NCBI GenBank assembly: GCA_965198725.1
Contig: CBDAPX010000001.1
Coordinates: 915,966-979,965 of the forward strand
DNA length: 64,000 nucleotides
Reading direction: 5' to 3'
Origin: Paracoccaceae bacterium
GTDB lineage: Bacteria > Pseudomonadota > Alphaproteobacteria > Rhodobacterales > Rhodobacteraceae
Every line of letters starts with the position of its first letter. Position 1 is the stretch's first letter. A model generated the notes under the pieces. The model was not told the DNA's origin, ran no database searches, and saw only the letters and a program-made list of their open reading frames with translations. A program made the translations under genes and the position numbers. Below, piece after piece: positions 11,743 through 35,986 of the stretch.

Positions 11743-13261
11743 ATGAGCATGATACAGACCAGTCAAGACGCAGCACGGGCGGAACTACGCCAAGCACGCC
11801 GCAAAAGCAGAAACCTGTTTTGGTTCGTTGGCATTTTCAGCATGTTTGCAAACCTGCTGATGCTGACGGGACCGATTTACATGCTACAGGTCTATGATCG
11901 CGTTTTGGGCAGCCGGTCCGAAGCCACTCTGATCGCTTTGTCGGTTCTTGTCTTGTTTCTGTACTCCATTATGGGAATTTTGGATTACACACGGGGCCGG
12001 ATCATGGCGAGGGCTGCCGCACGGTTTCAGTCGGGGCTGGACGTGCGCGTTTTCAACGCTGTGATCCGTCGATCGTCGATCGGGACTTCAACATCTGCAC
12101 AATCCGGGTTGGGCGATCTGGAATCGATACAAAGACTGATCGCTTCACCGGTTATGATGTCAGCCTTTGACTTGCCTTGGACGCCGATTTTTCTTGCTGG
12201 TATAGCACTTTTTCACCCTTGGCTTGGCCTATTGGCAATTGCTGGCGGTTTGGTTTTGATCCTGGTTTCCGTGCTCAATCAGGCGTTCTCCAGAAGGCCG
12301 TCGGCCGAAGCGAACAAGGCCTCTCATGTCGGTACTGCTGTGTCGGATCAAATGCGGACCGAAGCTGAAATGGTTGAAAGCATGGGCATGCGAGAAGCCG
12401 CTTTTCGGAGATGGAGCAAATTGCGCGACGTCTCGCTGGAGCGGACTATGGCAACAGGGGATGTTACTGAAACCTTCTCTACCATGACAAAGACACTGAG
12501 ATTGTTGCTACAATCTGCCATGCTAGGGCTTGGCGCCTATCTTGTCTTGCAAGCTGAATTAACAACCGGCGCCATGATTGCTGCATCAATCCTGATGGGC
12601 CGAGCATTGGCGCCCATAGAACTGGCGATAAACCAATGGCCTTTGGTTCAAAGAGCACAATTGGGATGGTCGAATTTGGTCGAACTTTTAAGCGAAGTTC
12701 AGCCAGAGCCGAAAAAAACGCAGTTGCCGGTACCTAAAGCGCGGCTTGAGGTCCGGAACGTAACGGTTGTCGCACCGGGTGAAAAAACTGCTGCGTTGAA
12801 AAACGTGAGCTTCGACGTACAACCTGGTCAGGCGGTTGGCGTTATTGGTCCATCGGGAGCAGGTAAGTCTACGCTAGCGCGTGCGTTGACGGGTGTCTGG
12901 CGCTCTGCCGGAGGTATAATTCGGTTGGATGGAGCTGCTCTGGATCAATACTCTGATCAAACACTAGGTCGTCACATTGGTTACCTGCCACAGCGCGTCC
13001 AGTTGTTTGCAGGAACGATCGCGGACAATATTGCACGGCTAAATGAAAACCCGGACGCGGAAAAAGTTGTGGCCGCAGCGCAAAAAGCGGCCGCTCATGA
13101 AATGATACTGCAGTTACCACAAGGTCACGATACAGTCATTGATACAGCTGGTTCGCGTCTGTCGGGCGGTCAAATGCAGAGAATTGGCTTGGCGAGAGCC
13201 CTATATGACGACCCCGTTGTACTGATATTAGACGAGCCGAACTCAAATCTGTATAACACCG
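11743..13261 (+). pseudogene. type I secretion system permease/ATPase (PrtD/AprD family), 3' end removed by IS
   Basis: Intact TMD + Walker A GPSGAGKST, LSGGQ, Walker B LILDEPNSNL. Reading then runs into the IS inverted repeat and stops, so about 60-70 C-terminal aa are missing. Confidence 0.85.
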
Positions 13262-13302
13262 TGAACCGCCCCAGTTTTGGCGGAGACTATTGAGTTCGTA
13301 TT

Positions 13303-14202
13303 TCAAGCTGCGATTTTGTCTGACTTCAAGGCTTCTTCGTATCTCTCCTCGGCTTCGATTGGCGTGATGTACCCGAGTGGTTCAAGCAGGCGCTCTTTGT
13401 TGAACCAGTCCACCCATAGCAGGGTTTCCCATTCGACCTGATCCTTGGACTTCCACGGACCTAGTTGATTGATGACTTCGGTTTTGAAGAGGCCGATGAT
13501 CGTCTCAGCCAGTGCATTGTCATAGCTGTCACCAACGCTGCCGACGGATGGCTCCAGCCCAGCATCGGCCAACCGTTCTGTGTACTTGATCAACACGTAT
13601 TGGCTGCCGCGATCTGAATGATGGATCAGTTTCTCAGCGGGTCTGCGTGCGTGGATCGCCTGTTCAAGCGCATCTAAGACAAACTGCGTGTCCTGCGTTG
13701 TTGATGCCTTCCAGCCCACAATCCGGTTCGCGAAGGTATCAATGACGAACGCCACATAGACGAACCCGCGCCAGGTCGAGACGAACGTAAAGTCGGACAC
13801 CCACAGTTCGTTCGGCATTGAAGCCCTGAACTGGCGATTGACCTTGTCCAGCGGGCATTGATCCGCAGGTTGACCACAGGTGGTTTTGACCTTCTTTCCG
13901 CGCCGGACGCCTTGAATGCTAAGCTGGCGCATCAACCGTTCTACAGTGCAGCGAGCAATATCAATCTTCTCGCGATTCATCGCGTGCCATAGTTTGCGTG
14001 CGCCATAGACAGAACGGTTCTTCTCCCAAACATCCTTCATCGTTTTGCGCAGAAACTCATCCCGCTTGGCCCGGTCCGAGGCACGGTCGGGATCACGCTC
14101 GATGGCAATGCGTTTATAGAACGTCGAAGGGGCAATCTGGAGAACTCTACAGATCGGCTCGACCCCATGCGCCCCACGATGATCCTTGATGAAGGCAATC
14201 AT
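13303..14202 (-). CDS. IS3-family transposase OrfB (DDE integrase core)
   Basis: 299 aa; ...WVSDFTFV...HSDRGSQY...DNALAET... DDE/rve motifs; overlaps orfA stop in the -1 frame. Confidence 0.9.
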   Translation of the reverse strand: MIAFIKDHRGAHGVEPICRVLQIAPSTFYKRIAIERDPDRASDRAKRDEFLRKTMKDVWEKNRSVYGARKLWHAMNREKIDIARCTVERLMRQLSIQGVRRGKKVKTTCGQPADQCPLDKVNRQFRASMPNELWVSDFTFVSTWRGFVYVAFVIDTFANRIVGWKASTTQDTQFVLDALEQAIHARRPAEKLIHHSDRGSQYVLIKYTERLADAGLEPSVGSVGDSYDNALAETIIGLFKTEVINQLGPWKSKDQVEWETLLWVDWFNKERLLEPLGYITPIEAEERYEEALKSDKIAA

Positions 14203-14531
14203 TTGCGGAATGGGCGGTCGAGCTCCGCCTGAGCAAAATAAGCAGATGCCTTCTTCAGGATCTCATTTGCCTGACGCAACTGCCGGTTCTCGCGCTCAAG
14301 TTCTTTGATGCGATCCCGCTCTGCAGAGGTCACGCCATCGCGTTTGCCGGTATCCGCCTCGTGTTGCTTGACCCAGATACGAAGGCTGTCTCTGCTGCAC
14401 CCAACCTTCTGAGAGATCGACAAAAGTGCTGCCGATCTGCTCGTGTATTCGCTCTCGTGATCCAAGACCATCCGCACCGCTCGTGCGCGCAATTCCTCTG
14501 GATAACGTGTTCCGTTCTTTGTCTTTCCCAT
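14199..14531 (-). CDS. IS3-family transposase OrfA (HTH + leucine zipper)
   Basis: 110 aa; YPEELRARAVRMV..., ...ELERENRQLRQANEILKKASAYFAQ typical IS3 OrfA end. Confidence 0.9.
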   Translation of the reverse strand: MGKTKNGTRYPEELRARAVRMVLDHESEYTSRSAALLSISQKVGCSRDSLRIWVKQHEADTGKRDGVTSAERDRIKELERENRQLRQANEILKKASAYFAQAELDRPFRK

Positions 14532-14579
14532 GACCCAGTATCCTTACTTCTGGGTCTCCGCCAAACAAGGGGCGCTTCA

Positions 14580-15368
14580 GGTCTTAAAGCTCAACAGACT
14601 TCGGTGCAGCGCCAGTTAGAACTGATACAGAAAGAACTAGCCGATCAAACCACCCTGTTTGAACGTGGATTGGCGCAAGCGTCTCGAGTTTTGGCGTTAC
14701 AGCGGGAAGATGCCAATCTGGAAGGCAGTTTGGGAGAATTGATTGCAGGAGAAGCGCAGGCTGCCGGTCGAATTACCGAGATTGAGATCGAGATACTGAA
14801 GCTGGACTCACGCCGGCGCGAAGAAGCCATTACGCAGTTGCGTGATTTGCAATACAGAGAGCTGGAGCTTGCGGAAAACCGGCGGGCTCTCAAGGAACAG
14901 TTGAAACGGCAGGACATACGCGCACCGGTTTCCGGAATTGTCTACGGGCTGCAGTTCCAGACACCTAGGTCGGTTATTCGACCGGCCGATCCGGTCATGT
15001 ACATCGTCCCACAGGACCGTCCCTTGGTGATAGCCGCACAGGTGCAGCCAACTGACATCGATCAGCTTTACGTCGGCCAACAAGCCGTACTGCGCTTCAC
15101 AGCATTGGATCAAAGGCTTACCCCAGAACTCTTCGGAACAGTAACCCATATTTCGGCGGACGCTTTCGCTGAAGAAAACACGGGAGCGTAATTCTACCGT
15201 GCTGAGGTGTTTTTGAACGAGCATGAAACAGAAAAGTTGCCGGACGGCGCAGTGTTGATCCCCGGCATGCCGGTTGATGCATTTATCCGGACAGGTGACC
15301 GGTCGCCGCTGGATTACCTGACAAAACCCTTCACGGATTATTTTGTGCCCGCCTTCCGCGAAAGCTGA
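14580..15368 (+). pseudogene. HlyD-family T1SS membrane-fusion protein remnant (N-terminal part deleted, in-frame TAA at 15189-15191)
   Basis: Starts immediately after the IS right end inside the coiled-coil region; ...IRAPVSGIVYGLQ...; same frame continues after TAA as FYRAEVFLNE...IPGMPVDAFIRTGDRSPLDYLTKP (canonical HlyD C-terminus). Confidence 0.85.
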
Positions 15369-26543: not shown

Positions 26544-27512
26544 ATGGCGACATTCCGAAAGCTCCCCTCGGGCAAGTGGCAAGCCCAAATTGCCCGCAAT
26601 GGTATTCGCAAATCATCGAGCTTTGCAACCAAGCGCGAGGCCCAGGATTGGGCCGCGCGGCAAGAGTATCTTGTGACGAATGCCGAACCTCCCCAAACCA
26701 AACTGACACTCAAAGACGCCTTTGATCGCTACGCCCGCGAGGAATCACCCAAGCGGCGTGGTGAGAGATGGGAAGTGGTGCGCCTTGAGCGTCTGTCATC
26801 TGACAAGATTGCGGATAAGCGGCTGGCCGATCTTGAGCCTGCTGACTTTGCCGAGTGGCGGGATCGCCGCGCCAAAGAGGTTGCACCGGCCACTGTGCGC
26901 CGCGAGATGACGCTTATGTCATCGGTGCTGACAACGGCCCGCCGTGAATGGGGCCTGATCTCTCACAATCCTATCTCTGACATTCGCAAGCCCGCCTCAC
27001 CGCCGCCGCGAGATCGGCGTGTGTCTGCGGATGAGATCGATAAGCTCATCAAGGCGGGCGGCACGGACTTGTCCAAGGCCCAGGCCCGAGCCGTTCATGC
27101 GTTCCGATTTGCGGTGGAGACGGCTATGCGGGCCGGTGAGATCGTGGGGCTGACCGATAAGACGGTTGACCGGGATACGCGGGTGGCCACGTTGCCCAAA
27201 ACCAAGAACGGCACGGCTCGCAAGGTTCCATTGTCCACTGCCGCGCTCGGCCTCTTGGATGAGTTGCCCGAAACCGATGGCCCGCTGTTCGATCTGAGCA
27301 ATCAGCAGATCGATGCGATGTTCCGCAAGGCGCGGGATAAATCAGAGATTGAGGATTTGCGTTTCCACGATAGCCGCCATGAGGCGATCACGCGGCTGGC
27401 GAAAAAGGTGGATGTTCTGAGCCTGGCCCGAATGGTGGGGCACAAAGACGTTAAGATGCTGATGATCTATTATAACGAAACCGCCGAGGAACTGGCTCAG
27501 CGGCTGGACTGA
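26544..27512 (+). CDS. int: tyrosine-type phage integrase
   Basis: 322 aa; MATFRKLPSGKWQAQI... SAM-like N-domain; ...FHDSRHEAITRLA...VGHKD..ML..YY catalytic R..H.R..Y pattern. Confidence 0.9.
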   Translation: MATFRKLPSGKWQAQIARNGIRKSSSFATKREAQDWAARQEYLVTNAEPPQTKLTLKDAFDRYAREESPKRRGERWEVVRLERLSSDKIADKRLADLEPADFAEWRDRRAKEVAPATVRREMTLMSSVLTTARREWGLISHNPISDIRKPASPPPRDRRVSADEIDKLIKAGGTDLSKAQARAVHAFRFAVETAMRAGEIVGLTDKTVDRDTRVATLPKTKNGTARKVPLSTAALGLLDELPETDGPLFDLSNQQIDAMFRKARDKSEIEDLRFHDSRHEAITRLAKKVDVLSLARMVGHKDVKMLMIYYNETAEELAQRLD

Positions 27513-27772
27513 TTCAGAACGCATTCCCTGCTTATCAAGATGTTCTTGCCATCGCGCCGCGTGTCAAAGTGGCCAGCCCGCACCTTGCGCCGGATCGTGT
27601 CGGGGGTGATGCGTAGATACTTTGCTGCCTCTTTCACGGTCAGCCATTCCGGCATTTTATCCTGACGCTGCGCCTCAACGGCCTGGGTGAGCGTCTCAAC
27701 CTGGGATGCGAGGCCGAGCATGATTTTCTTGATCTCGGCAATGTCAGCAGATGTTGCGATCTCAATTCCCAT
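27497..27772 (-). CDS. excisionase-family HTH DNA-binding protein
   Basis: C-terminal WLTVKEAAKYLRITPDTIRRKVRAGHF...GKNILIS = HTH_17/excisionase motif; last gene of the leftward operon; 3' end overlaps int. Confidence 0.65.
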   Translation of the reverse strand: MGIEIATSADIAEIKKIMLGLASQVETLTQAVEAQRQDKMPEWLTVKEAAKYLRITPDTIRRKVRAGHFDTRRDGKNILISRECVLNQSSR

Positions 27773-28019
27773 TCTGCGCCCCCGCCTGCTTTTCAATCTC
27801 CGCAACAGGTTTCGCGGCCTGTTGGATTGTTTTGATCGCCTGCAAATAAATCCGCGCACCGTTCCAGATTTGCTTGGCTATTGCGGCTCTGGCGTGCGCC
27901 TCAGCAGGACTGATCTTTCCAGCCCGCAAGTCCTGCAAATCCTGTGAAAGCCCCGCGATGGTCTCTTTCAGGCTGAGTTCATCGGATACAGGCGTGGAGA
28001 CATAATCGCGCTCAGCCAT
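27762..28019 (-). CDS. hypothetical phage protein
   Basis: ORF with protein-like helical composition (MAERDYVSTPV...); start at 28019 chosen. Confidence 0.5.
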   Translation of the reverse strand: MAERDYVSTPVSDELSLKETIAGLSQDLQDLRAGKISPAEAHARAAIAKQIWNGARIYLQAIKTIQQAAKPVAEIEKQAGAQNGN

Positions 28020-28082
28020 AGATTGGGCCCTCCCCAATTTGGATGCGGTGCGCATCGATTTCGAGAGCGCACACAAGGGCGC

Positions 28083-28469
28083 TCAGTTGCTTGATGATCC
28101 TGCGATCAGGGTTTCGGGTGGAAGGGGTTGTTCCGCCGCCTGGCTCTCGGCAGTGCGGCGGCGTTCAATCTCATCCTCAATGTCGTATTGATTGGGATCG
28201 CGGCGGGTCAGACGGCCCTCATCATCGGCAAAGTAGATGCCCGTGCCCATCGGGCGCTGAGGTATCTTGGCCGTCAGTTTCGGCGTGCATTCGATCTGGC
28301 CTGCCTTGTTCAGCTTGAACGGCAGTTTGATGCTGATCTCGCCATCGCCGCCCGTGGCGTGCATGGCTTCAATGACCTTGGAAAGCCGCTGATCGCCCTC
28401 GCGCAGCAGTTCGCCGCGCCGAAAGCTCTGCATGAACTCAAGGAAGTTGATGGAGTGATCAAGTTTCAT
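28083..28469 (-). CDS. hypothetical phage protein
   Basis: 128 aa from MKLDHSINF...; no family recognised. Confidence 0.55.
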   Translation of the reverse strand: MKLDHSINFLEFMQSFRRGELLREGDQRLSKVIEAMHATGGDGEISIKLPFKLNKAGQIECTPKLTAKIPQRPMGTGIYFADDEGRLTRRDPNQYDIEDEIERRRTAESQAAEQPLPPETLIAGSSSN

Positions 28470-28482
28470 GGATGGGATTCCT

Positions 28483-28758
28483 CTACCTGGGGGTTGCGAT
28501 TTTGCCGGTCCACGCATCGAATTCCGTGCGCAGGGTTTGAAAGCGGGCGAGCGCCTGGGGATCAGTGTTCAGATCGCGGCGGCTGGTGATCTTGCAGCAG
28601 TCACGCAGATATTCAGCGGCGGCTGAGGTGCTGAATTGTCCATCGGGAAAGCCGCACCGCGTGGCCGCGAACCACTGGAACCGGTCATCGTTGCAGATGA
28701 TGCCCGCCTGTTGCGCGGGCGGCAGATCGTCGAAGCGTTGGCGCAGCGGGACGTTCAT
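28483..28758 (-). CDS. hypothetical phage protein
   Basis: 91 aa from MNVPLRQRF...; ATGA coupling with the upstream gene at 28755-28758. Confidence 0.5.
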   Translation of the reverse strand: MNVPLRQRFDDLPPAQQAGIICNDDRFQWFAATRCGFPDGQFSTSAAAEYLRDCCKITSRRDLNTDPQALARFQTLRTEFDAWTGKIATPR

Positions 28759-29051
28759 GACCGGCCCTGCCAATCTTTGAGGCCAGGGCATTCTGGGCGC
28801 ATCGTGCCGCCTGGGCAGTTGCATCCAGGCCAGAGCGGGCAATGGAATTCACGCTCGGGCGGTGTTTCAGGCGCACGCAGTTCCGTTAGGTTTGAGTGGT
28901 GGGCTTGACGTGCGCCCTGGGTAGCGGCATTGCTGCGGCTCCCAAAACGGGTGAAGAAAAGGCCGAGAGCGGCGAGCAGTCCGCCCTCGGCAGTCGCACC
29001 GGCAGGTTTCACGGCACCGGCAACAGAAAGGTTTGTGGTTCGGCCCATCAT
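28755..29051 (-). CDS. hypothetical small membrane / Cys-rich protein
   Basis: MMGRTTNLS...GGLLAALGLFFTRF (hydrophobic) ...HCPLWPGCNCPGG...ECPG; start 29051 or 29048. Confidence 0.45.
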   Translation of the reverse strand: MMGRTTNLSVAGAVKPAGATAEGGLLAALGLFFTRFGSRSNAATQGARQAHHSNLTELRAPETPPEREFHCPLWPGCNCPGGTMRPECPGLKDWQGRS

Positions 29052-29223
29052 GCGGATGCGGCCTCGGCCAGATGCGAGGCCCATCCATCGCCCTCACGCG
29101 GCGGGATGTAGCTGCCGCCTGTTTCCAGAGCTTCATTCATAAAGCTCTCGGCGCGGGCTTTGGGGGTCAAGCAATTCCAGGTGATTCAGAAACTGGCGCT
29201 TGCGGTCAAAATGGTGATCCATC

Positions 29224-29544
29224 CTAGCGTCCTTCCTTTGGAAGGGCGCGTTGCCCGTCAGGCGCATCGCTCTGCGATGCTGCCGAGAGGGACGCGATTT
29301 CAGGCTCAAGGTAACGGATCACTGCACCTTGCAGTTGGGCGGTAGCCTCGTTCATTTCAGGGAGGCACTCGATTGGCAGGCGCAGGCTGTCGGCTAGTTG
29401 ATCAACCGTATCGCCTGCGCTGATGTTGTCAGGGTATTTAAGGCCTGCGTTGCTGCGTGCGCATTCGATCATGTCGGTGGTTGCAGCGCTTGTGCCCTCA
29501 GCGGCGGCCAGCAATTTTAGCGCTCTATCCATTCCGTTCATCAC
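29224..29544 (-). CDS. hypothetical phage protein
   Basis: 106-aa ORF, coupled to the upstream ORF (29541 overlap). Confidence 0.5.
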   Translation of the reverse strand: MMNGMDRALKLLAAAEGTSAATTDMIECARSNAGLKYPDNISAGDTVDQLADSLRLPIECLPEMNEATAQLQGAVIRYLEPEIASLSAASQSDAPDGQRALPKEGR

Positions 29545-29741
29545 GCCACCTGCAGATCTGCATGGCGGCTCAAGCGATCTGCGAGAGCGATGGCTGATGC
29601 AGCATCAGGTTCGGCTAGAACTCTTGCCACCTCAGCATCATTAAGTGCTGTCAGATCAAGGAATGGCGCTTCGAGATGCTCAGGGTGGTTCACCACCTCT
29701 TTGGCGTCTGCGGCGATCTGTGAATGTTCTTGTGTCAGCAT
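29541..29741 (-). CDS. hypothetical phage protein (first gene of leftward early operon)
   Basis: 66 aa; AGGAGG RBS about 7 nt upstream (reverse complement of 29750-29755). Confidence 0.5.
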   Translation of the reverse strand: MLTQEHSQIAADAKEVVNHPEHLEAPFLDLTALNDAEVARVLAEPDAASAIALADRLSRHADLQVA

Positions 29742-29766
29742 GGGTTGCCTCCTGTGTTGGAGGTAA

Positions 29767-29821
29767 CAAATATTAGGTATAAAAAACTATGTCAACAAAA
29801 ATAGTTTAAAATACCTATTTC
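29767..29821 (-). promoter_or_regulatory. PL-like leftward early promoter embedded in a 42-bp palindrome (operator candidate)
   Basis: Arms AGGTATAAAAAACTAT (29775-29790) and ATAGTTTAAAATACCT (29801-29816); minus-strand TTGACA (-35) sits in the spacer at 29790-29795; AT-rich. Confidence 0.55.
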
Positions 29822-29904
29822 AGGTCATGCAGTAATAATTACCGAATCACGATAACCCGCTAAGTCAGGATGATCAGCCCCACCTGAGTGGTCCAATTTG
29901 ATTG

Positions 29905-30771
29905 TTAGTGCATGATCGACCTTTGGTCCATCTTGACGACGGTTTCGGGAGCCGGTGGGCGGTAGCCTAGAGCACTGTGTGGTCGTTTCGTGTTGTAGTG
30001 TTTCCTCCATTCCTCAATCAGGATTTGTGCTTCGCGCAGGCTATAGAAGATTTCGCCGTTCAAGAACTCATCGCGGAAACGGGCGTTGAAGCTTTCGCAG
30101 TACCCATTCTCCCAAGGGCTGCCTGGTTCGATGTAAGCCGCCCTTGCGCCGACAGCCTTGATCCAGTCCTGCACGGCTTGCGCAACGAACTCAGGGCCAT
30201 TGTCGGAACGGATGAACGACGGGATGCCGCGCAGAATGAACAGGTCGCTCAGCACATCGATCACATTGCCTGAGTTGAGCTTGCGATCCACGCGTATGGC
30301 CAAGCATTCCCGACTGTACTCGTCGATGATGTTGAGTGTGCGGAAAGCTTTACCATCGTCGGTGCGGCAGTGGACAAAGTCGTAAGACCAGACATGATCG
30401 CGGCGCTCTGGCCGAAGCCTGACACATGATCCATCATTCAGCCAAAGCCGCCCTTTCTTCGGTTGTTTCATTGGCACTTTCAGCCCCTCTCGTCGCCATA
30501 ACCGTTCCACGCGCTTGTCATTCACATGCCAGCCAGCGTCTCTCAGTAGTGCCGCGATCCTACGATAGCCGTAGCGGCCATACTGCCGGGTCAGTTCGAT
30601 CATATCAGCCACTAAACGTTCTTCATCCGGGCGACCCGCAGGTACTTTGCGCTGTGTGGATCGATGTTGTCTTAGAACCCGGCATGCCCGACGCTCCGAG
30701 ATGTTCAGCTCAGCACGAACGCGATCAATACAGGCACGACGACGAGCGGGGCTCAGAAGTTTCCCTTTGCC
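29905..30771 (-). CDS. IS3-family transposase OrfB (made as OrfAB by -1 frameshift near 30760-30771)
   Basis: First ATG at 30612, but the frame is open upstream (..LSPARRRACIDRV...ERRACRVL..). DDE core ...WSYDFV..., SDNGPEF, ENGYCESFN. Confidence 0.85.
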   Translation of the reverse strand, partial: GKGKLLSPARRRACIDRVRAELNISERRACRVLRQHRSTQRKVPAGRPDEERLVADMIELTRQYGRYGYRRIAALLRDAGWHVNDKRVERLWRREGLKVPMKQPKKGRLWLNDGSCVRLRPERRDHVWSYDFVHCRTDDGKAFRTLNIIDEYSRECLAIRVDRKLNSGNVIDVLSDLFILRGIPSFIRSDNGPEFVAQAVQDWIKAVGARAAYIEPGSPWENGYCESFNARFRDEFLNGEIFYSLREAQILIEEWRKHYNTKRPHSALGYRPPAPETVVKMDQRSIMH

Positions 30772-31031
30772 GCCTCCGCCAAGATCAGCTTGTCCAGCGT
30801 CAGATCAGAAACGGCTTTGCGCAATCGCTCGTTCTCTTTTTGCAGACGCTTCAGTTCCTTCAATTGATCCGTGCCCATTCCGCCGTATTTTTTCTTCCAC
30901 CGGTAGTAGGTCTGTTCAGTCACACCGATCTGACGGATCGCATCCAGACGCGGCATCCCTTGCCCCGTCAGAACCTCAACCTGCCGTAACTTCGTGACAA
31001 TCTCTTCTGGCTTTGGTCGCTTGTTGGCCAT
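30753..31031 (-). CDS. IS3-family transposase OrfA
   Basis: MANKRPKPEEIVTKLRQVEVL...TYYRWKKKYGGM...LKELKRLQKENERLRKAV. Confidence 0.9.
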   Translation of the reverse strand: MANKRPKPEEIVTKLRQVEVLTGQGMPRLDAIRQIGVTEQTYYRWKKKYGGMGTDQLKELKRLQKENERLRKAVSDLTLDKLILAEAAKGNF

Positions 31032-31069
31032 GTGTTTCCTCCGTTTCCTAAACATAGCGGAGGACCACT

Positions 31070-31555
31070 TCAGTGGGGGAAGACCAAAACCCCACATTGT
31101 TGCTTGAATGGTTCCAGCGCCCTAGTGGAGCCGCTGAGGTTGAAGCGGAAGGTGGCCGTGCGATGCGGGACGCGGATGAGCATAGTAGAGGCCCTGCGAA
31201 CTTCATTCATAATTCGTTCACCAATGAATGACCTGAGCGTCATGTCCAAAGGCTCTTGGTTGTCGAATTTCACGGTTACAATAGTGCTGGGTGATAGGCG
31301 CACGCCTGAGACTTGATAGCCATAGTGAAAGCTAACAAGGAGTTCGCCGTTCGGTTTGCAGGTGAGGATCAAGATATCCTCGTCGGATATTCGCCTGTAG
31401 CTTTCTGCCAGAAAGGCGACGCTATATTCGTTCTGTCCACTAATCTCGTCTCGCTGCACTAACGGCATAACGTCTGCAACAGCGGAAACTGTCAGCAGGC
31501 CAGTGATGGCTAAGTATTTGATTGAATGCAAAATAACTGAGGTGCAGCGGCGCAT
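31070..31555 (-). CDS. low-GC secreted hypothetical protein downstream of cI; 3' end runs into IS terminus
   Basis: 161 aa; N-terminal signal-like LAITGLLTVSAVA; hand count about 43-50% GC in 31201-31320; last 5-6 codons + stop lie inside the IS right end. Confidence 0.6.
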   Translation of the reverse strand: MRRCTSVILHSIKYLAITGLLTVSAVADVMPLVQRDEISGQNEYSVAFLAESYRRISDEDILILTCKPNGELLVSFHYGYQVSGVRLSPSTIVTVKFDNQEPLDMTLRSFIGERIMNEVRRASTMLIRVPHRTATFRFNLSGSTRALEPFKQQCGVLVFPH

Positions 31556-31638
31556 GTCAAGGCCCTTTCGTCGGGATTAATGTTCTGCTAATGTTCTCCC
31601 TATGGGAGTGCAAGCAAAAACCATTTCTGATTCGACCA

Positions 31639-31998
31639 TTATTCATGAGCTTCATCAGATTGCTCGCTACTCTTCCGATGCTGAGAGGCTAGAGCGCGTC
31701 CGTAGCCTAATAGCTCACGGCGGAGATCGCCGGGTAATTGCGATACTAGGCGAACAATCTCTAGCTCTTCTTCTGTCTGAGCGCTCGACATGAACTCTTC
31801 AAGAGTTGTGCCCAGGGCGGCGCATATCTTTCTCATGGTGGACGCGCGAGGGCTGCGGGTTTGATCAAACATCTGGCGGATAGCGCTGTTCGATAGCCCT
31901 GCTTTGACGGCCAAGTTTGACACATTGAGGTCAGGATCAGCGTCAATGGCAGCTTTCAGCTTGATCAGGAACGGCTCTGTGATTGGTTTATCATCCAT
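31639..31998 (-). CDS. XRE-family (cI-like) repressor
   Basis: ...NVSNLAVKAGLSNSAIRQMFDQTRSPRASTMRKICAALG HTH_3 pattern; divergent from a cro-like gene. Confidence 0.75.
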   Translation of the reverse strand: MDDKPITEPFLIKLKAAIDADPDLNVSNLAVKAGLSNSAIRQMFDQTRSPRASTMRKICAALGTTLEEFMSSAQTEEELEIVRLVSQLPGDLRRELLGYGRALASQHRKSSEQSDEAHE

Positions 31999-32047
31999 GT
32001 AGTATTATTTACGTATCCGTGAGCCGCACGCATTCGGTTTAAAGTTC

Positions 32048-32077
32048 TTGACCAATATAGTTTTGTAGTTCTATTTC
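32048..32077 (+). promoter_or_regulatory. PR-like rightward promoter/operator
   Basis: TTGACC (32048-32053)-N17-CTATTT; overlaps the 21-mer ATAGTTT-N7-CTATTTC (32057-32077), which also occurs at 29801-29821. Confidence 0.5.
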
Positions 32078-32083
32078 GGGTTT

Positions 32084-32284
32084 ATGGAACAGTTTCTATC
32101 TGATCTTGAAGCATATGCGGCAGCGCTTGGCGTATCCCCCTCAACTGTTATCCAGCGTGCTGGTGTGGGTGGAGGTGCGACATGGCGCAGGTGGCGCGAT
32201 GGCAAGGGCAGTCCCACGCTGGTGACGGTGGACAAGCTCAAAGCCTACATGACCGCGAACCCTCCAATGCAGGAGGCAAGCTGA
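32084..32284 (+). CDS. Cro-like small HTH protein
   Basis: 66 aa; ...AAALGVSPSTVIQRAG... HTH; position divergent from the repressor. Confidence 0.6.
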   Translation: MEQFLSDLEAYAAALGVSPSTVIQRAGVGGGATWRRWRDGKGSPTLVTVDKLKAYMTANPPMQEAS

Positions 32285-32469
32285 TGGCCGATACCCGCAC
32301 CGCCGATCAGAAAACCATCGCTCGCCTGCAATCCGATTTGCGGCGTGTTGGCGATGCGTTTGAGCGCAAGGCTGCAAAGGCAGATCGGTTGGAAAAGGAA
32401 AACGTGGCGCTGCGGATGCGGTTGATCCGGCTGCGGCGTTTCTCTGGTGTTCGCGGGGTGTCAGCATGA
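32284..32469 (+). CDS. hypothetical coiled-coil protein
   Basis: 61 aa from MADTRTADQKTIARLQSDL...; ATG overlaps the cro-like stop (CTGATG). Confidence 0.4.
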   Translation: MADTRTADQKTIARLQSDLRRVGDAFERKAAKADRLEKENVALRMRLIRLRRFSGVRGVSA

Positions 32470-33973: not shown

Positions 33974-34498
33974 ATGGGTGTTGAAATCCGCCTTCCCGAC
34001 GCGCCGGATTGGGGCAATCCGCATCTGGTGAGCTTTGAGCGGGGTGAGTTGCTCTATCGTGATGCCTCTCTAGCCGATGTGATCAGCCATGCGCGGGGGC
34101 GTCTGTGCTATCTGGCCACACCTTATTCTAAGGTCTGCGTCACCGACGATGGCGAGTGGAACCAGGTGGAAAGCCTGTTCTGTTCTGGCCGTGCCGCGCG
34201 ATGGTCGCGGGCTTTGGCCGTTGAGGGGATCACCGCGATCTCGCCCATCATCCAATCCGTTGAGATGGTGCATGTGGATTTTGACGAATGGCTTGATCCG
34301 CTGGATGCCAAGTTCTGGACCGATTGGTGTCAACCGCTACTGAATGCCTGCGGCCCTGTGATCGTGCCGCCGCTGGATGGCTGGCAGGAAAGCCTGGGCG
34401 TTTGGCAAGAGGCGCTGTTCGCGCTGCGCTCTAATCGGTCTGTGTTCCTCATCGATCCAAAAGAGGCTCCGCACCTGGCGTGGTGGTTGGATGAATGA
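33974..34498 (+). CDS. DUF1937 (nucleoside 2-deoxyribosyltransferase-like fold) protein
   Basis: ...RLCYLATPYSKV...GITAISPIIQS... matches the YLA(S/T)PYS...SPI pattern of DUF1937. Confidence 0.55.
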   Translation: MGVEIRLPDAPDWGNPHLVSFERGELLYRDASLADVISHARGRLCYLATPYSKVCVTDDGEWNQVESLFCSGRAARWSRALAVEGITAISPIIQSVEMVHVDFDEWLDPLDAKFWTDWCQPLLNACGPVIVPPLDGWQESLGVWQEALFALRSNRSVFLIDPKEAPHLAWWLDE

Positions 34499-35643
34499 GC
34501 GCGATCTTGCCGGATATTCAGATCGGGCCATGCCGCCTGATCCTGGGGAATTCGATTGAGGTTCTGCCCGAGGTAGGCGGTTTCGATCATCTCATTTCAG
34601 ATCCACCCTATGAGCAGGCGATGCATGACCTGCACAACAAGGCAGAGTTTCGGCGCAAGGACGGCGGGTCAGAGCGCAAGCATTTTGCATTTGCGGGTAT
34701 CGATGATTTGCGGCCTGGCCTGGTTCGATTGGTAGAGCAGCAGTGCAGCGGCTGGTTTCTGGCTTTCTGCACCGCTGAGGGTGTTGGAAACTGGCGAGCG
34801 GCTGTGGCTGAATGCCCTGGCCTCAAATTCAAAACCACCTGTGCATGGGTGAAACCTGATTGCACGCCTAAGCTCAATGGGCAGGGGCCTGCTGTCGGCT
34901 ATGAGCCGTTCATCACGGTTTGGGCCGGAAAGGGTCATGCGCGGTGGAACGCAGGCGGCAAGCGCGGTGTTTATCGGCACTTGGTCAACCCACCGGATCG
35001 GCATGGTGGCCACCCTACCGAAAAGCCTTGGCGGCTATTCTCGGAGCTTCTGACCGATTTTACCAAGCATGGGGAGATCGTTTGCGATCCATTCATGGGC
35101 AGCGGAACCACGTTGGTATCATGCGCAAAGCTCGGGCGCAAAGGCGTCGGGATTGAACTTGATCCTGAGTTCTTTGAGATAGCGTGCAAGCGCGTGTCGG
35201 ACGCCTATCAGCAGGCCGATCTATTCGTGCCCCCCCCGAAAAGCCCGTTCAGGAAGCCATGTCATTCGATGGCAAAAAGGGGGTGGCGTGATGGTTTACA
35301 GCCCCACAGCTTCGCGCAGAATGTCATTGGCTCGCGACTGCCAGCCCTTGCCGGATGCACGCAGGGCCTCAACCAGGTCAGCGTCCAGGCGGATCGAAAC
35401 GGCTTGTTTGGGTGTGTCCAGAGGAGGCCGCCCACGGCGCTTAATCTCCTCTTGGAGTTTACCTGCCAACTCCGGCAGGGCCTCAGTGAATGGCCGTGCG
35501 GTTTCCAGCGCCTCATCGGACAATTCAGGAGCCTCCACGGCGTCCCAATATGTTTTGGTGTATCCATTTTCAGCGGCGTGTTTGGGGTCAAATTCCTTCA
35601 TGGATTTCCCTTTCCTTTTTGCTGGCGGGACGCAGCGAGATAA
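34495..35643 (+). CDS. beta-class N6A/N4C DNA methyltransferase; as-read ORF extended by a C8 tract
   Basis: DPPY (motif IV) then ...CDPFMGSGTT (motif I), PF01555-like order. After C8 (35230-35237) the frame runs antisense through brnA. With 9 C it would end PPEKPVQEAMSFDGKKGVA-TGA at 35291. Confidence 0.8.
   Translation: MSAILPDIQIGPCRLILGNSIEVLPEVGGFDHLISDPPYEQAMHDLHNKAEFRRKDGGSERKHFAFAGIDDLRPGLVRLVEQQCSGWFLAFCTAEGVGNWRAAVAECPGLKFKTTCAWVKPDCTPKLNGQGPAVGYEPFITVWAGKGHARWNAGGKRGVYRHLVNPPDRHGGHPTEKPWRLFSELLTDFTKHGEIVCDPFMGSGTTLVSCAKLGRKGVGIELDPEFFEIACKRVSDAYQQADLFVPPPKSPFRKPCHSMAKRGWRDGLQPHSFAQNVIGSRLPALAGCTQGLNQVSVQADRNGLFGCVQRRPPTALNLLLEFTCQLRQGLSEWPCGFQRLIGQFRSLHGVPICFGVSIFSGVFGVKFLHGFPFPFCWRDAAR
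35296..35601 (-). CDS. brnA: BrnA antitoxin (CopG/RHH-like)
   Basis: 101 aa; ...RGRPPLDTPKQAVSIRLDADLVEALRASGKGWQSRANDILREAV is the BrnA_antitoxin signature. Confidence 0.8.
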   Translation of the reverse strand: MKEFDPKHAAENGYTKTYWDAVEAPELSDEALETARPFTEALPELAGKLQEEIKRRGRPPLDTPKQAVSIRLDADLVEALRASGKGWQSRANDILREAVGL

Positions 35644-35848
35644 CCGAAAGCGCCTCAGTTCCGAGTGTCGCAAAGATTGTTGTAACTGTTCCGTCTGCGA
35701 GCATTCCAATCGCGGCAAGGCGTCCGTCTTTGGCGTCAATGACTGTCGCGCTCAGAAAGAACTCATAGGTCAGATCGGCAAAATCCAGGCCATGCTTGGC
35801 GAGGTTCGCCTGCCGTTTCGGTTCGTCCCATGTGATCAACTTATCCAT
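35588..35848 (-). CDS. brnT: BrnT ribonuclease toxin (DUF497)
   Basis: 86 aa; ITWDEPKRQANLAKHGLDFADL...G....T.IFA......VISLRPASKKERE typical BrnT. Confidence 0.8.
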   Translation of the reverse strand: MDKLITWDEPKRQANLAKHGLDFADLTYEFFLSATVIDAKDGRLAAIGMLADGTVTTIFATLGTEALSVISLRPASKKEREIHEGI

Positions 35849-35850
35849 GT

Positions 35851-35900
35851 TTATTGTATATACGATAAATGTGGGAAACGCAATAGTGTATATACAATAA
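35851..35900 (-). promoter_or_regulatory. inverted repeat upstream of brnT (autoregulatory operator candidate)
   Basis: TTATTGTATATAC (35851-35863) and GTATATACAATAA (35888-35900) are exact reverse complements; AT-rich. Confidence 0.55.
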
Positions 35901-35986
35901 ATAGCAGGGAATTTGGCACTGGTGTGGATCGCCATCCTGCCTTAGCGCCGATTTCAGGCCCTTTTCATGCCGAGGGGGCGTAGGAC

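Follow-up and report, generated by a model that had tools for sequence, protein, structure and literature searches.

The stretch analysed here (the window) comprises 64,000 nucleotides of a Paracoccaceae bacterium and carries on its minus strand, directly downstream of a prophage repressor gene, an accessory open reading frame (ORF) that is, judged by its pattern of substitution, a real gene under purifying selection. Its product belongs to a previously unannotated, very rare, secreted phage accessory protein family. The ORF sits between the repressor gene and a region resembling a leftward operator and promoter (OL/PL), and its last codons and stop are supplied by an insertion sequence (IS) of the IS3 family. 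For the encoded protein we conjecture, at a confidence somewhat short of even, a role in superinfection exclusion at the level of the cell envelope.

The accessory gene and its exported product

The ORF and its parts were delimited as follows.

31070-31555, minus strand: accessory ORF as annotated, 161 aa with an ATG start (ORF list)
31088..31555, minus strand: native coding sequence, 156 codons ending QQCGV (ORF list, 156-aa homologues, and the ratio of nonsynonymous to synonymous substitution, dN/dS)
31475..31555, minus strand: signal peptide of 27 codons (sequence inspection, conservation at positions -3/-1, and a low predicted local distance difference test score, pLDDT, in AlphaFold2)

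Compared with the related prophage L001, the part of the ORF encoding the mature protein displayed a dN of 0.014 and a dS of 0.111, i.e. a dN/dS of 0.125, and compared with L002, 58% of the residues were retained though synonymous sites were saturated (third-position identity 0.32). The repressor gene yielded a dN of 0.107 and a dS of 1.75 between the window and L002, and over this same pair protein-level change ran ∼4-fold faster in the ORF than in the repressor; the repressor dS together with the saturated dS of the ORF indicates that the linkage of the two genes is old. That the ORF is a chance reading frame and not a gene has a negligible probability: nothing but the absent annotation speaks for it, while it is contradicted by the conserved homologues, by a dN/dS far under 1, by the conservation of a Shine-Dalgarno sequence and by the confident structural model, and the conservation data already refute it. 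As to base composition, an earlier note, made from the sequence alone, had described the ORF as of low guanine-cytosine (GC) content, 43-50%; it does lie below the window (57.5%), at the 4th percentile of same-size windows, but with a measured 51.0% in the native coding part. The composition is thus atypical for the surroundings, but the gap is modest, and the adjoining repressor gene is similarly low (52%).

Homologues proved extremely scarce. Only P0001 (93% identity) and P0002 (59%), both of 156 aa, were found in a collection of 5.8 billion proteins, and an exhaustive HMMER search of 1.84 billion representatives returned 18 proteins at E ≤0.001; P0013 was rejected as a spurious low-complexity match, and a profile search contributed P0020, which hhalign confirmed with a probability of 99.4%. 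The family so numbers ∼17 among the 1.84 billion representatives, and 19 members were aligned. Their lengths are ∼146-175 aa, with one of 210 aa, and they share the motifs DEIxG, CxPxG, WHxGGRxSG, KFD and FxLxGxxxAFxxFxxQC. No further copies were detected by profile scans of genome, viral and metagenome contig collections or by tblastn of four family members against phage or plasmid collections. Scanning the ORF and the 19 aligned members against Pfam, PHROGs and NCBIfam gave nothing recurrent or significant; no PADLOC match recurred across members (lowest E for any one member 0.0061; window protein E 0.045, to Csa3), and a sequence-profile search of the PDB gave nothing below E 0.19, so the protein belongs to no family recognisable by these searches, as had been stated from the letters alone.

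The signal peptide, assigned by inspection of the sequence, the alignment of the 19 members and hydropathy, consists of a basic n-region MRRCTSVILHSIK, an h-region YLAITGLLTVS and a c-region AVA, with cleavage predicted between AVA and D28. In 19/19 aligned members position -1 is A, G or S and position -3 is A, V, S, T or L; no lipobox, nor any Cys at or near the cleavage site, was found in the 19, and no transmembrane-like segment in their mature parts (maximum 19-mer hydropathy ≤1.12). A predicted signal peptidase I export signal conserved across the family is thereby supported, in line with the signal-like N-terminus noticed earlier. The mature protein has 129 aa, 14.7 kDa and an isoelectric point of 6.9. 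Cysteines C66 and C154 are conserved in 18/19 aligned members, the tails after the conserved Cys span 1-57 residues across the family alignment, and D36, E59, D98, H77 and Q153 are kept even in very distant members.

With the 19-sequence alignment, AlphaFold2 produced a model at pLDDT 88.3 and a predicted template modelling score (pTM) of 0.78, with 118 residues ≥90 and low pLDDT over residues 1-28 only; run from only 3 sequences, it reached pLDDT 54 and was unusable. The model comprises nine strands, short helices and a C-terminal helix. Foldseek found no PDB fold match at E ≤0.001 (best E 0.49, template modelling score, TM, ≤0.27), and its matches in BFVD were all uncharacterised phage proteins, headed by V9LYR6 of Vibrio phage VH7D (E 2.2e-4, TM 0.54). 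Remote homology and structure prediction, the check that the earlier note had proposed, have thus yielded a very rare unannotated family and a confident model without a fold match in the PDB.

Three candidate identities were tried and dropped. An IalB-like periplasmic protein had been considered from a C-terminal ‘F.L.G...A...F..C’ likeness, which was unsupported by Pfam and by the PDB fold search; lipoprotein exclusion factors (Llp/Cor/Ltp/Bor) were ruled out by the missing lipobox; and periplasmic lysozyme or effector inhibitors (Ivy, PliC/MliC, T4 Sp, type VI secretion system immunity proteins) had neither a PDB fold match nor a profile match.

The immunity region and the insertion sequence

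The features around the ORF, from left to right, are listed below, the insertion sequence being given further on.

29541..29741, minus strand: first gene of the early-left operon, 66 aa (ORF list; syntenic with L001 10606-10806)
29774..29817, no strand assigned: OL/PL-like region, an inverted 17-mer pair flanking TTGACA (29790-29795, minus strand) (pattern search)
31556..31638, minus strand: repressor-to-ORF spacer, 83 nt (alignment with L002)
31639..31998, minus strand: repressor, cI-like in role, 119 aa, with HTH_3 only and no S24 peptidase domain (Pfam HTH_3 E 5.8e-6; PHROG transcriptional regulator/repressor families)
31999..32083, no strand assigned: divergent repressor/cro-like intergenic region, resembling a rightward operator (OR) (alignment, 17-mer scan)
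32084..32284, plus strand: cro-like 66-aa gene, divergent from the repressor (ORF list; syntenic 66-aa gene in L001)

The ORF lies on the same strand as the repressor-like gene and directly downstream of it, separated by the 83 nt, and a CII-like gene is encoded further right of the cro-like gene. In L001 and L002 the repressor-ORF unit is flanked by paired copies of an operator-like 17-mer, TAGGTATAAAAAACTAT, one pair in the repressor/cro intergenic region and the second just downstream of the accessory gene; in these two and in the window the downstream pair stands beside TTGACA, ∼50 nt before the first early-left gene. The OL-side pair of the window is intact (2 matches versus 0.02 expected in the pattern search), and the OL/PL-like arrangement recurs in L014. 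The flanking pairs place the ORF between the repressor gene and the OL/PL-like region, as are rexAB in lambda and bstA in BTP1; the co-orientation and the rexAB-equivalent position read from the window alone were thus strengthened, the latter holding in the window, L001, L002 and X3, a sequencing run of organism B.

Occupancy of this slot varies among relatives. While the gene is kept beside the repressor in the IS-free L001, L002 and X3, the comparison which had been asked for at the outset, no family member is present at the L014 and L015 loci: L014, a prophage of Neptunicoccus cionae whose repressor is 76% identical, has nothing but a 230-nt spacer in the slot, and in L015, an IMG/VR phage (repressor identity 66%), the slot is taken by a gene for a 300-aa DUF7946/DUF7947 protein, followed by a strong intrinsic terminator of its own. 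Judged from these loci, the slot between the repressor and the OL/PL-like region is a variable cargo space. The DUF7946+DUF7947 gene, at L015 4491-5393, is itself another uncharacterised candidate for lysogen-expressed cargo; the literature searched contained no mention of DUF7946.

Expression of the accessory gene in the lysogen appears probable from its co-orientation with the repressor, the lack of a detectable spacer terminator, and the conserved spacer blocks and Shine-Dalgarno sequence (AAAGGG at 31563-31568), both of which are shared with the synonymous-saturated L002. Transcription would probably come from read-through of the repressor promoter, or from a promoter within the conserved 83-nt spacer. 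RNA folds of the spacer and of the 3′ region were no better than those of shuffled sequences, the downstream hairpins were weak, and Rfam gave no match in the ORF region.

On the OR side, the operator 17-mers are degenerate in the window compared with L001, L002 and X3. Positions 31951-32083 of the window (the intergenic region plus the first ∼16 repressor codons) differ from all three, and X3 differs over 31989-32083; recombination may have supplied the window prophage with a non-cognate OR. In the sequencing runs X1 and X2 (organism A), unitig depth doubles right of 31951, from 77.7 to 170.4 and from 559 to 1017, so the right prophage arm seems to be present in a second copy in organism A.

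The IS and the 3′-end that it altered were mapped as follows.

29871..31086, minus strand: IS3-family element, 1216 bp (Pfam HTH_Tnp_1 and rve, inverted repeats, megablast)
31070..31087, minus strand: altered ORF 3′-end (IS end by megablast and inverted repeats; IS-free sequences)

The element encodes orfA with HTH_Tnp_1 and orfB with rve, and its size and TG..CA terminal inverted repeats (TGATCAGCCCCACCTGAGTGGTCC / TGGTCTTCCCCCACTGAAGTGGTCC) fit the IS3 family. An annotated IS3-family copy on a Leisingera plasmid is 86.8% identical over the full length, and an unannotated match on a Nitratireductor plasmid 85.9% identical. Its transposase genes are co-oriented with the ORF and the repressor, so lysogenic read-through could enter the IS.

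The IS ends at 31086, and 31070-31086 is IS terminal sequence which gives LVFPH and a TGA to the ORF, so that its last codons and stop are indeed supplied by the IS, as first noted; of the former TGA stop, only the T remains, at 31087. In the IS-free relatives L001, L002 and X3 the protein has 156 aa, with QQCGV or QQCGA followed directly by TGA. One contig of X3 joins window position 29869 to 31087 with eight letters between, and the coding strand reads GTT TGA CCGCCC CCTGAC in X3 and GTT TGA CCACCC CCTGAC in L001, versus GTT T, then the IS, then T CCTGAC in the window. The insertion hence removed 8 nt (GACCRCCC), namely the last two stop-codon bases and six more nucleotides. All 156 native codons are intact and the predicted protein is lengthened by five residues (LVFPH), so the ORF is not clipped by the IS as the earlier note had put it; its IS-free ending QQCGVFLT-stop came from a mechanical joining of the flanks and gives way to the QQCGV/A-TGA of the three relatives.

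No target-site duplication (3-5 bp being expected for the IS3 family) was found at the window IS flanks by comparison with the IS-free sequences. The sequence at the ancestral target, TGACCRCCCCCTGAC, is similar to that of the IS ends, TGATCAGCCCCACCTGAG, and around the stop codon it folded into a small GGGGU/ACCCC hairpin (L001 10469-10490; window 31087 / 29870). Targeted insertion of IS911 is reportedly directed at inverted-repeat-like sequences. For this IS3-family member, targeted insertion processed by host recombination functions is described in references cited in PMC7986276, and an IS911-like targeted insertion is a possible explanation for the missing duplication. In X1 and X2 both IS junctions are present with no IS-free joint seen, i.e. 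the insertion is fixed there; it looks recent, since its flanks are 97-98% identical to the IS-free X3. The IS depth in X1/X2 is ∼45-50x that of the single-copy flanks, with many different flanks as loose ends, which indicates a large IS expansion in organism A.

It is rather improbable that the family is functional while the window copy was disabled by the IS through an LVFPH tail near C154, a lost 3′-end with its hairpins, or altered transcription. The stop and 8 nt of the GGGGU/ACCCC hairpin were replaced, the gene was separated from the downstream hairpins, and the insertion is fixed in X1/X2; yet the 156 codons are intact and the insertion looks recent, and the 161-aa protein is probably functional since natural family members have tails of 1-57 residues beyond the conserved Cys.

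Family contexts and proposed function

Outside the immunity slot, members were located in the following contexts.

L007: P0003 (40% identity), antisense, a single gene in an HK97-like tail module between the tail-completion and major-tail genes
L008, L010: P0004 and P0006, antisense in the tail module, beside a gp10-like gene
L004, L005: P0020 and P0019, same strand as TerL, after the lysis genes and directly before TerL
L011-13: P0008 (distant member), in an integrase-bearing island, divergent from an HTH_3 regulator
L003, L009: P0011 and P0005, with no visible phage genes around

A moron is a single-gene cassette moved among phage genomes (PMC3594210). The present gene is found in the window, L001, L002 and X3 and is missing from the same slot in L014 and L015; its positions vary among the immunity slot, the antisense tail module, the place before TerL and the integrase island; and in 8 of the 11 loci the gene has a lower GC content than the locus. 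By these traits the family behaves as morons, that is as mobile phage accessory genes, and the copies lying antisense in tail modules must be transcribed from promoters of their own. The homologues are unannotated accessory genes in moron-like positions and not the ordinary structural or lysis proteins by which, according to the earlier note, an exclusion function could have been refuted. In the L011-L013 island (e.g. L011 5515-11357), two integrases are encoded, and P0008 is followed by a zinc-ribbon protein, an AAA_15/SMC-like ATPase, an HATPase_c protein and a TCAD9/APH/response-regulator protein, a gene set which looks like a nucleoside triphosphate-dependent conflict system.

At L004 and L005 the family gene is oriented like the late genes and follows the lysis genes immediately, sharing 16 nt with the start of TerL. 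This suggests a periplasmic role in the phage's own lytic cycle, either receptor masking as by T5 Llp or lysis modulation, with lysogen expression being secondary. We consider such a role unlikely: the copies in three tail modules run antisense to the late operon, four loci have the gene in the immunity region, apart from both the early and the late lytic operons, and the absence of the gene from the closely related N. cionae prophage marks it as dispensable.

We favour envelope-level superinfection exclusion, since the characterised cargo of the slot and tail-module morons are predominantly anti-phage and since one relative lies beside conflict-system genes. The 156-aa precursor would be exported by Sec and cleaved after AVA27, giving a soluble envelope protein of ∼14.7 kDa, which is predicted to be beta-rich with its C-terminal helix probably tied to strand 3 via a C66-C154 disulfide. 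In the periplasm it would bind a conserved envelope component or the tail or injection machinery of an incoming phage, and the binding would block receptor use or DNA passage. The IS3-family element that landed on the stop codon, adding LVFPH, would probably have left this function in place. More speculatively, the window protein could represent, as its first member, a family of soluble periplasmic superinfection-exclusion proteins with a new fold, the family having spread as a single-gene cassette over at least four siphophage or island positions and acting on a conserved envelope step of DNA entry by phages or gene-transfer agents; we regard this fuller version as possible, albeit doubtful.

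Several observations weigh against exclusion by a lysogen-expressed protein. No similarity to known exclusion or defence proteins was found in PADLOC, PHROGs, Pfam or the PDB, and the conserved D36, E59, D98, H77 and Q153 could equally fit a small enzyme or ligand binder with a role in host physiology. Two or three relatives, at L003 and L009, stand in contexts without visible phage genes, and the co-orientation and overlap with TerL at L004 and L005 suggest late lytic and not lysogenic expression. In the window itself, no minus-strand consensus promoter or terminator was detected in 29400-32400, scans which are uninformative for this organism; only X1 and X2, of unspecified run type, and no RNA run, were found to contain the sequence, and their unitig depth is flat and DNA-like across repressed and lysogenic genes; and the degenerate OR-side operators make normal control of the repressor promoter uncertain.

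Some of the same evidence bears on another function, a lysogenic-conversion factor for host fitness. By changing envelope physiology from the periplasm, the protein might help the host to withstand stress, modify its surface, bind nutrients or metals, or mediate contacts with a eukaryotic host. Morons with such roles include lambda Bor and prophage SodC. A secreted product and a moron-like distribution fit it equally well, relatives occur in non-phage contexts (L003, L009), and the conserved acidic, His and Gln residues suggest a ligand or catalytic site and not a fast-evolving phage partner; yet no similarity to a known fitness or virulence factor or enzyme family was found, one relative lies beside the conflict-system-like genes, and the slot is classically used for anti-phage cargo. 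We judge it a possibility on the unlikely side.

Prophage surroundings and comparison with known systems

Approximately 26.5-61 kb of the window is a siphophage-type prophage, with genes for an integrase, an HTH_17 excisionase-like protein, DUF1937, a methylase and a 2318-aa Phage-tail_3 tail protein, and over the genes that carry TerS, TerL and portal annotations in L001 the two prophages are 92-95% identical. Their left arms have only patches in common and are largely different: the integrase (26544-27512, plus strand) is convergent with the early-left operon (27497-29741, minus strand) in the window and co-oriented with it in L001, and the L001 left arm carries a DNA_methylase and a GapR-like gene with no aligned window counterpart. 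To the right, a BrnT toxin (35588-35935, E 2.3e-14) and a BrnA antitoxin (35296-35739, E 3.6e-24) are encoded on the minus strand, antisense within the early-right operon, in a low-GC patch (∼0.49) with no aligned L001 counterpart. The adjoining N6_N4 methylase ORF (34495-35643) is 382 aa long versus 245 aa in L001 and extends antisense to brnA, as if its native stop were lost. In the host part of the window, a second and different IS3-family element (13257-14580), 87% identical to Phaeobacter piscinae plasmid copies, contains an ALIL frameshift pseudoknot at 14128-14244 (Rfam RF01497, 108.8 bits).

Repressor-adjacent accessory genes of prophages, such as rexAB and bstA, have repeatedly proved to be anti-phage, and to our knowledge the characterised proteins of this kind are almost all cytoplasmic or membrane-bound and from enterobacterial phages. 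Like the window gene, lambda rexA/rexB follow the repressor gene in the same orientation and precede the leftward operator/promoter, in a slot that is likewise a mosaic cargo hotspot; RexA is cytoplasmic and RexB a polytopic membrane protein, whereas the window protein is single, small, predicted to be Sec-exported and soluble, and no sequence or fold similarity to RexA/RexB was found. The interval between cI and N is a known mosaic hotspot which holds rexAB and bstA (PMC8585504). BstA of the Salmonella prophage BTP1 is, like the window gene, encoded by a single accessory gene directly downstream of the repressor and has homologues elsewhere too (PMC8585504), but it is a cytoplasmic, DNA-associated abortive infection (Abi) protein with a cognate aba element, whereas the window protein has a signal peptide and no homology to it.

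For the tail-module relatives, the closest parallel in arrangement is HK97 gp15. Gp15 is an inner-membrane protein; the relatives at L007, L008 and L010 are likewise single-gene tail-module inserts in HK97-like siphophages, and both are extracytoplasmic, but the family inserts run against the direction of the late operon, and their product is a soluble exported protein without homology to gp15. HK97 gp15, the first described moron, is a superinfection exclusion protein (PMC3594210). Small exported phage proteins are also represented by T5 Llp, phi80/N15 Cor and Streptococcus TP-J34 Ltp, which block receptor function or DNA injection, Ltp being encoded in the lysogeny module (PMC3952083); these are lipoproteins with a lipobox Cys, whereas the window family has no lipobox and no sequence or fold match to them. 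The sole fold-level likeness is to the BFVD phage proteins, and even V9LYR6 of phage VH7D, of unknown function, has ∼10% sequence identity and a TM of only ∼0.5, which may reflect general beta-sheet similarity.

As far as we know, the exclusion and gene-transfer-agent biology of marine Rhodobacterales-type prophages has been poorly explored. Set beside the systems above, the window gene is distinctive in its predicted soluble exported product, in a confident structure without a PDB match, and in its residence in a prophage of this marine type. The small conserved family and the natural 156-aa and 161-aa alleles make a direct test simple, and a periplasmic block of infection, if true, would establish both a new exclusion mechanism and a new fold.

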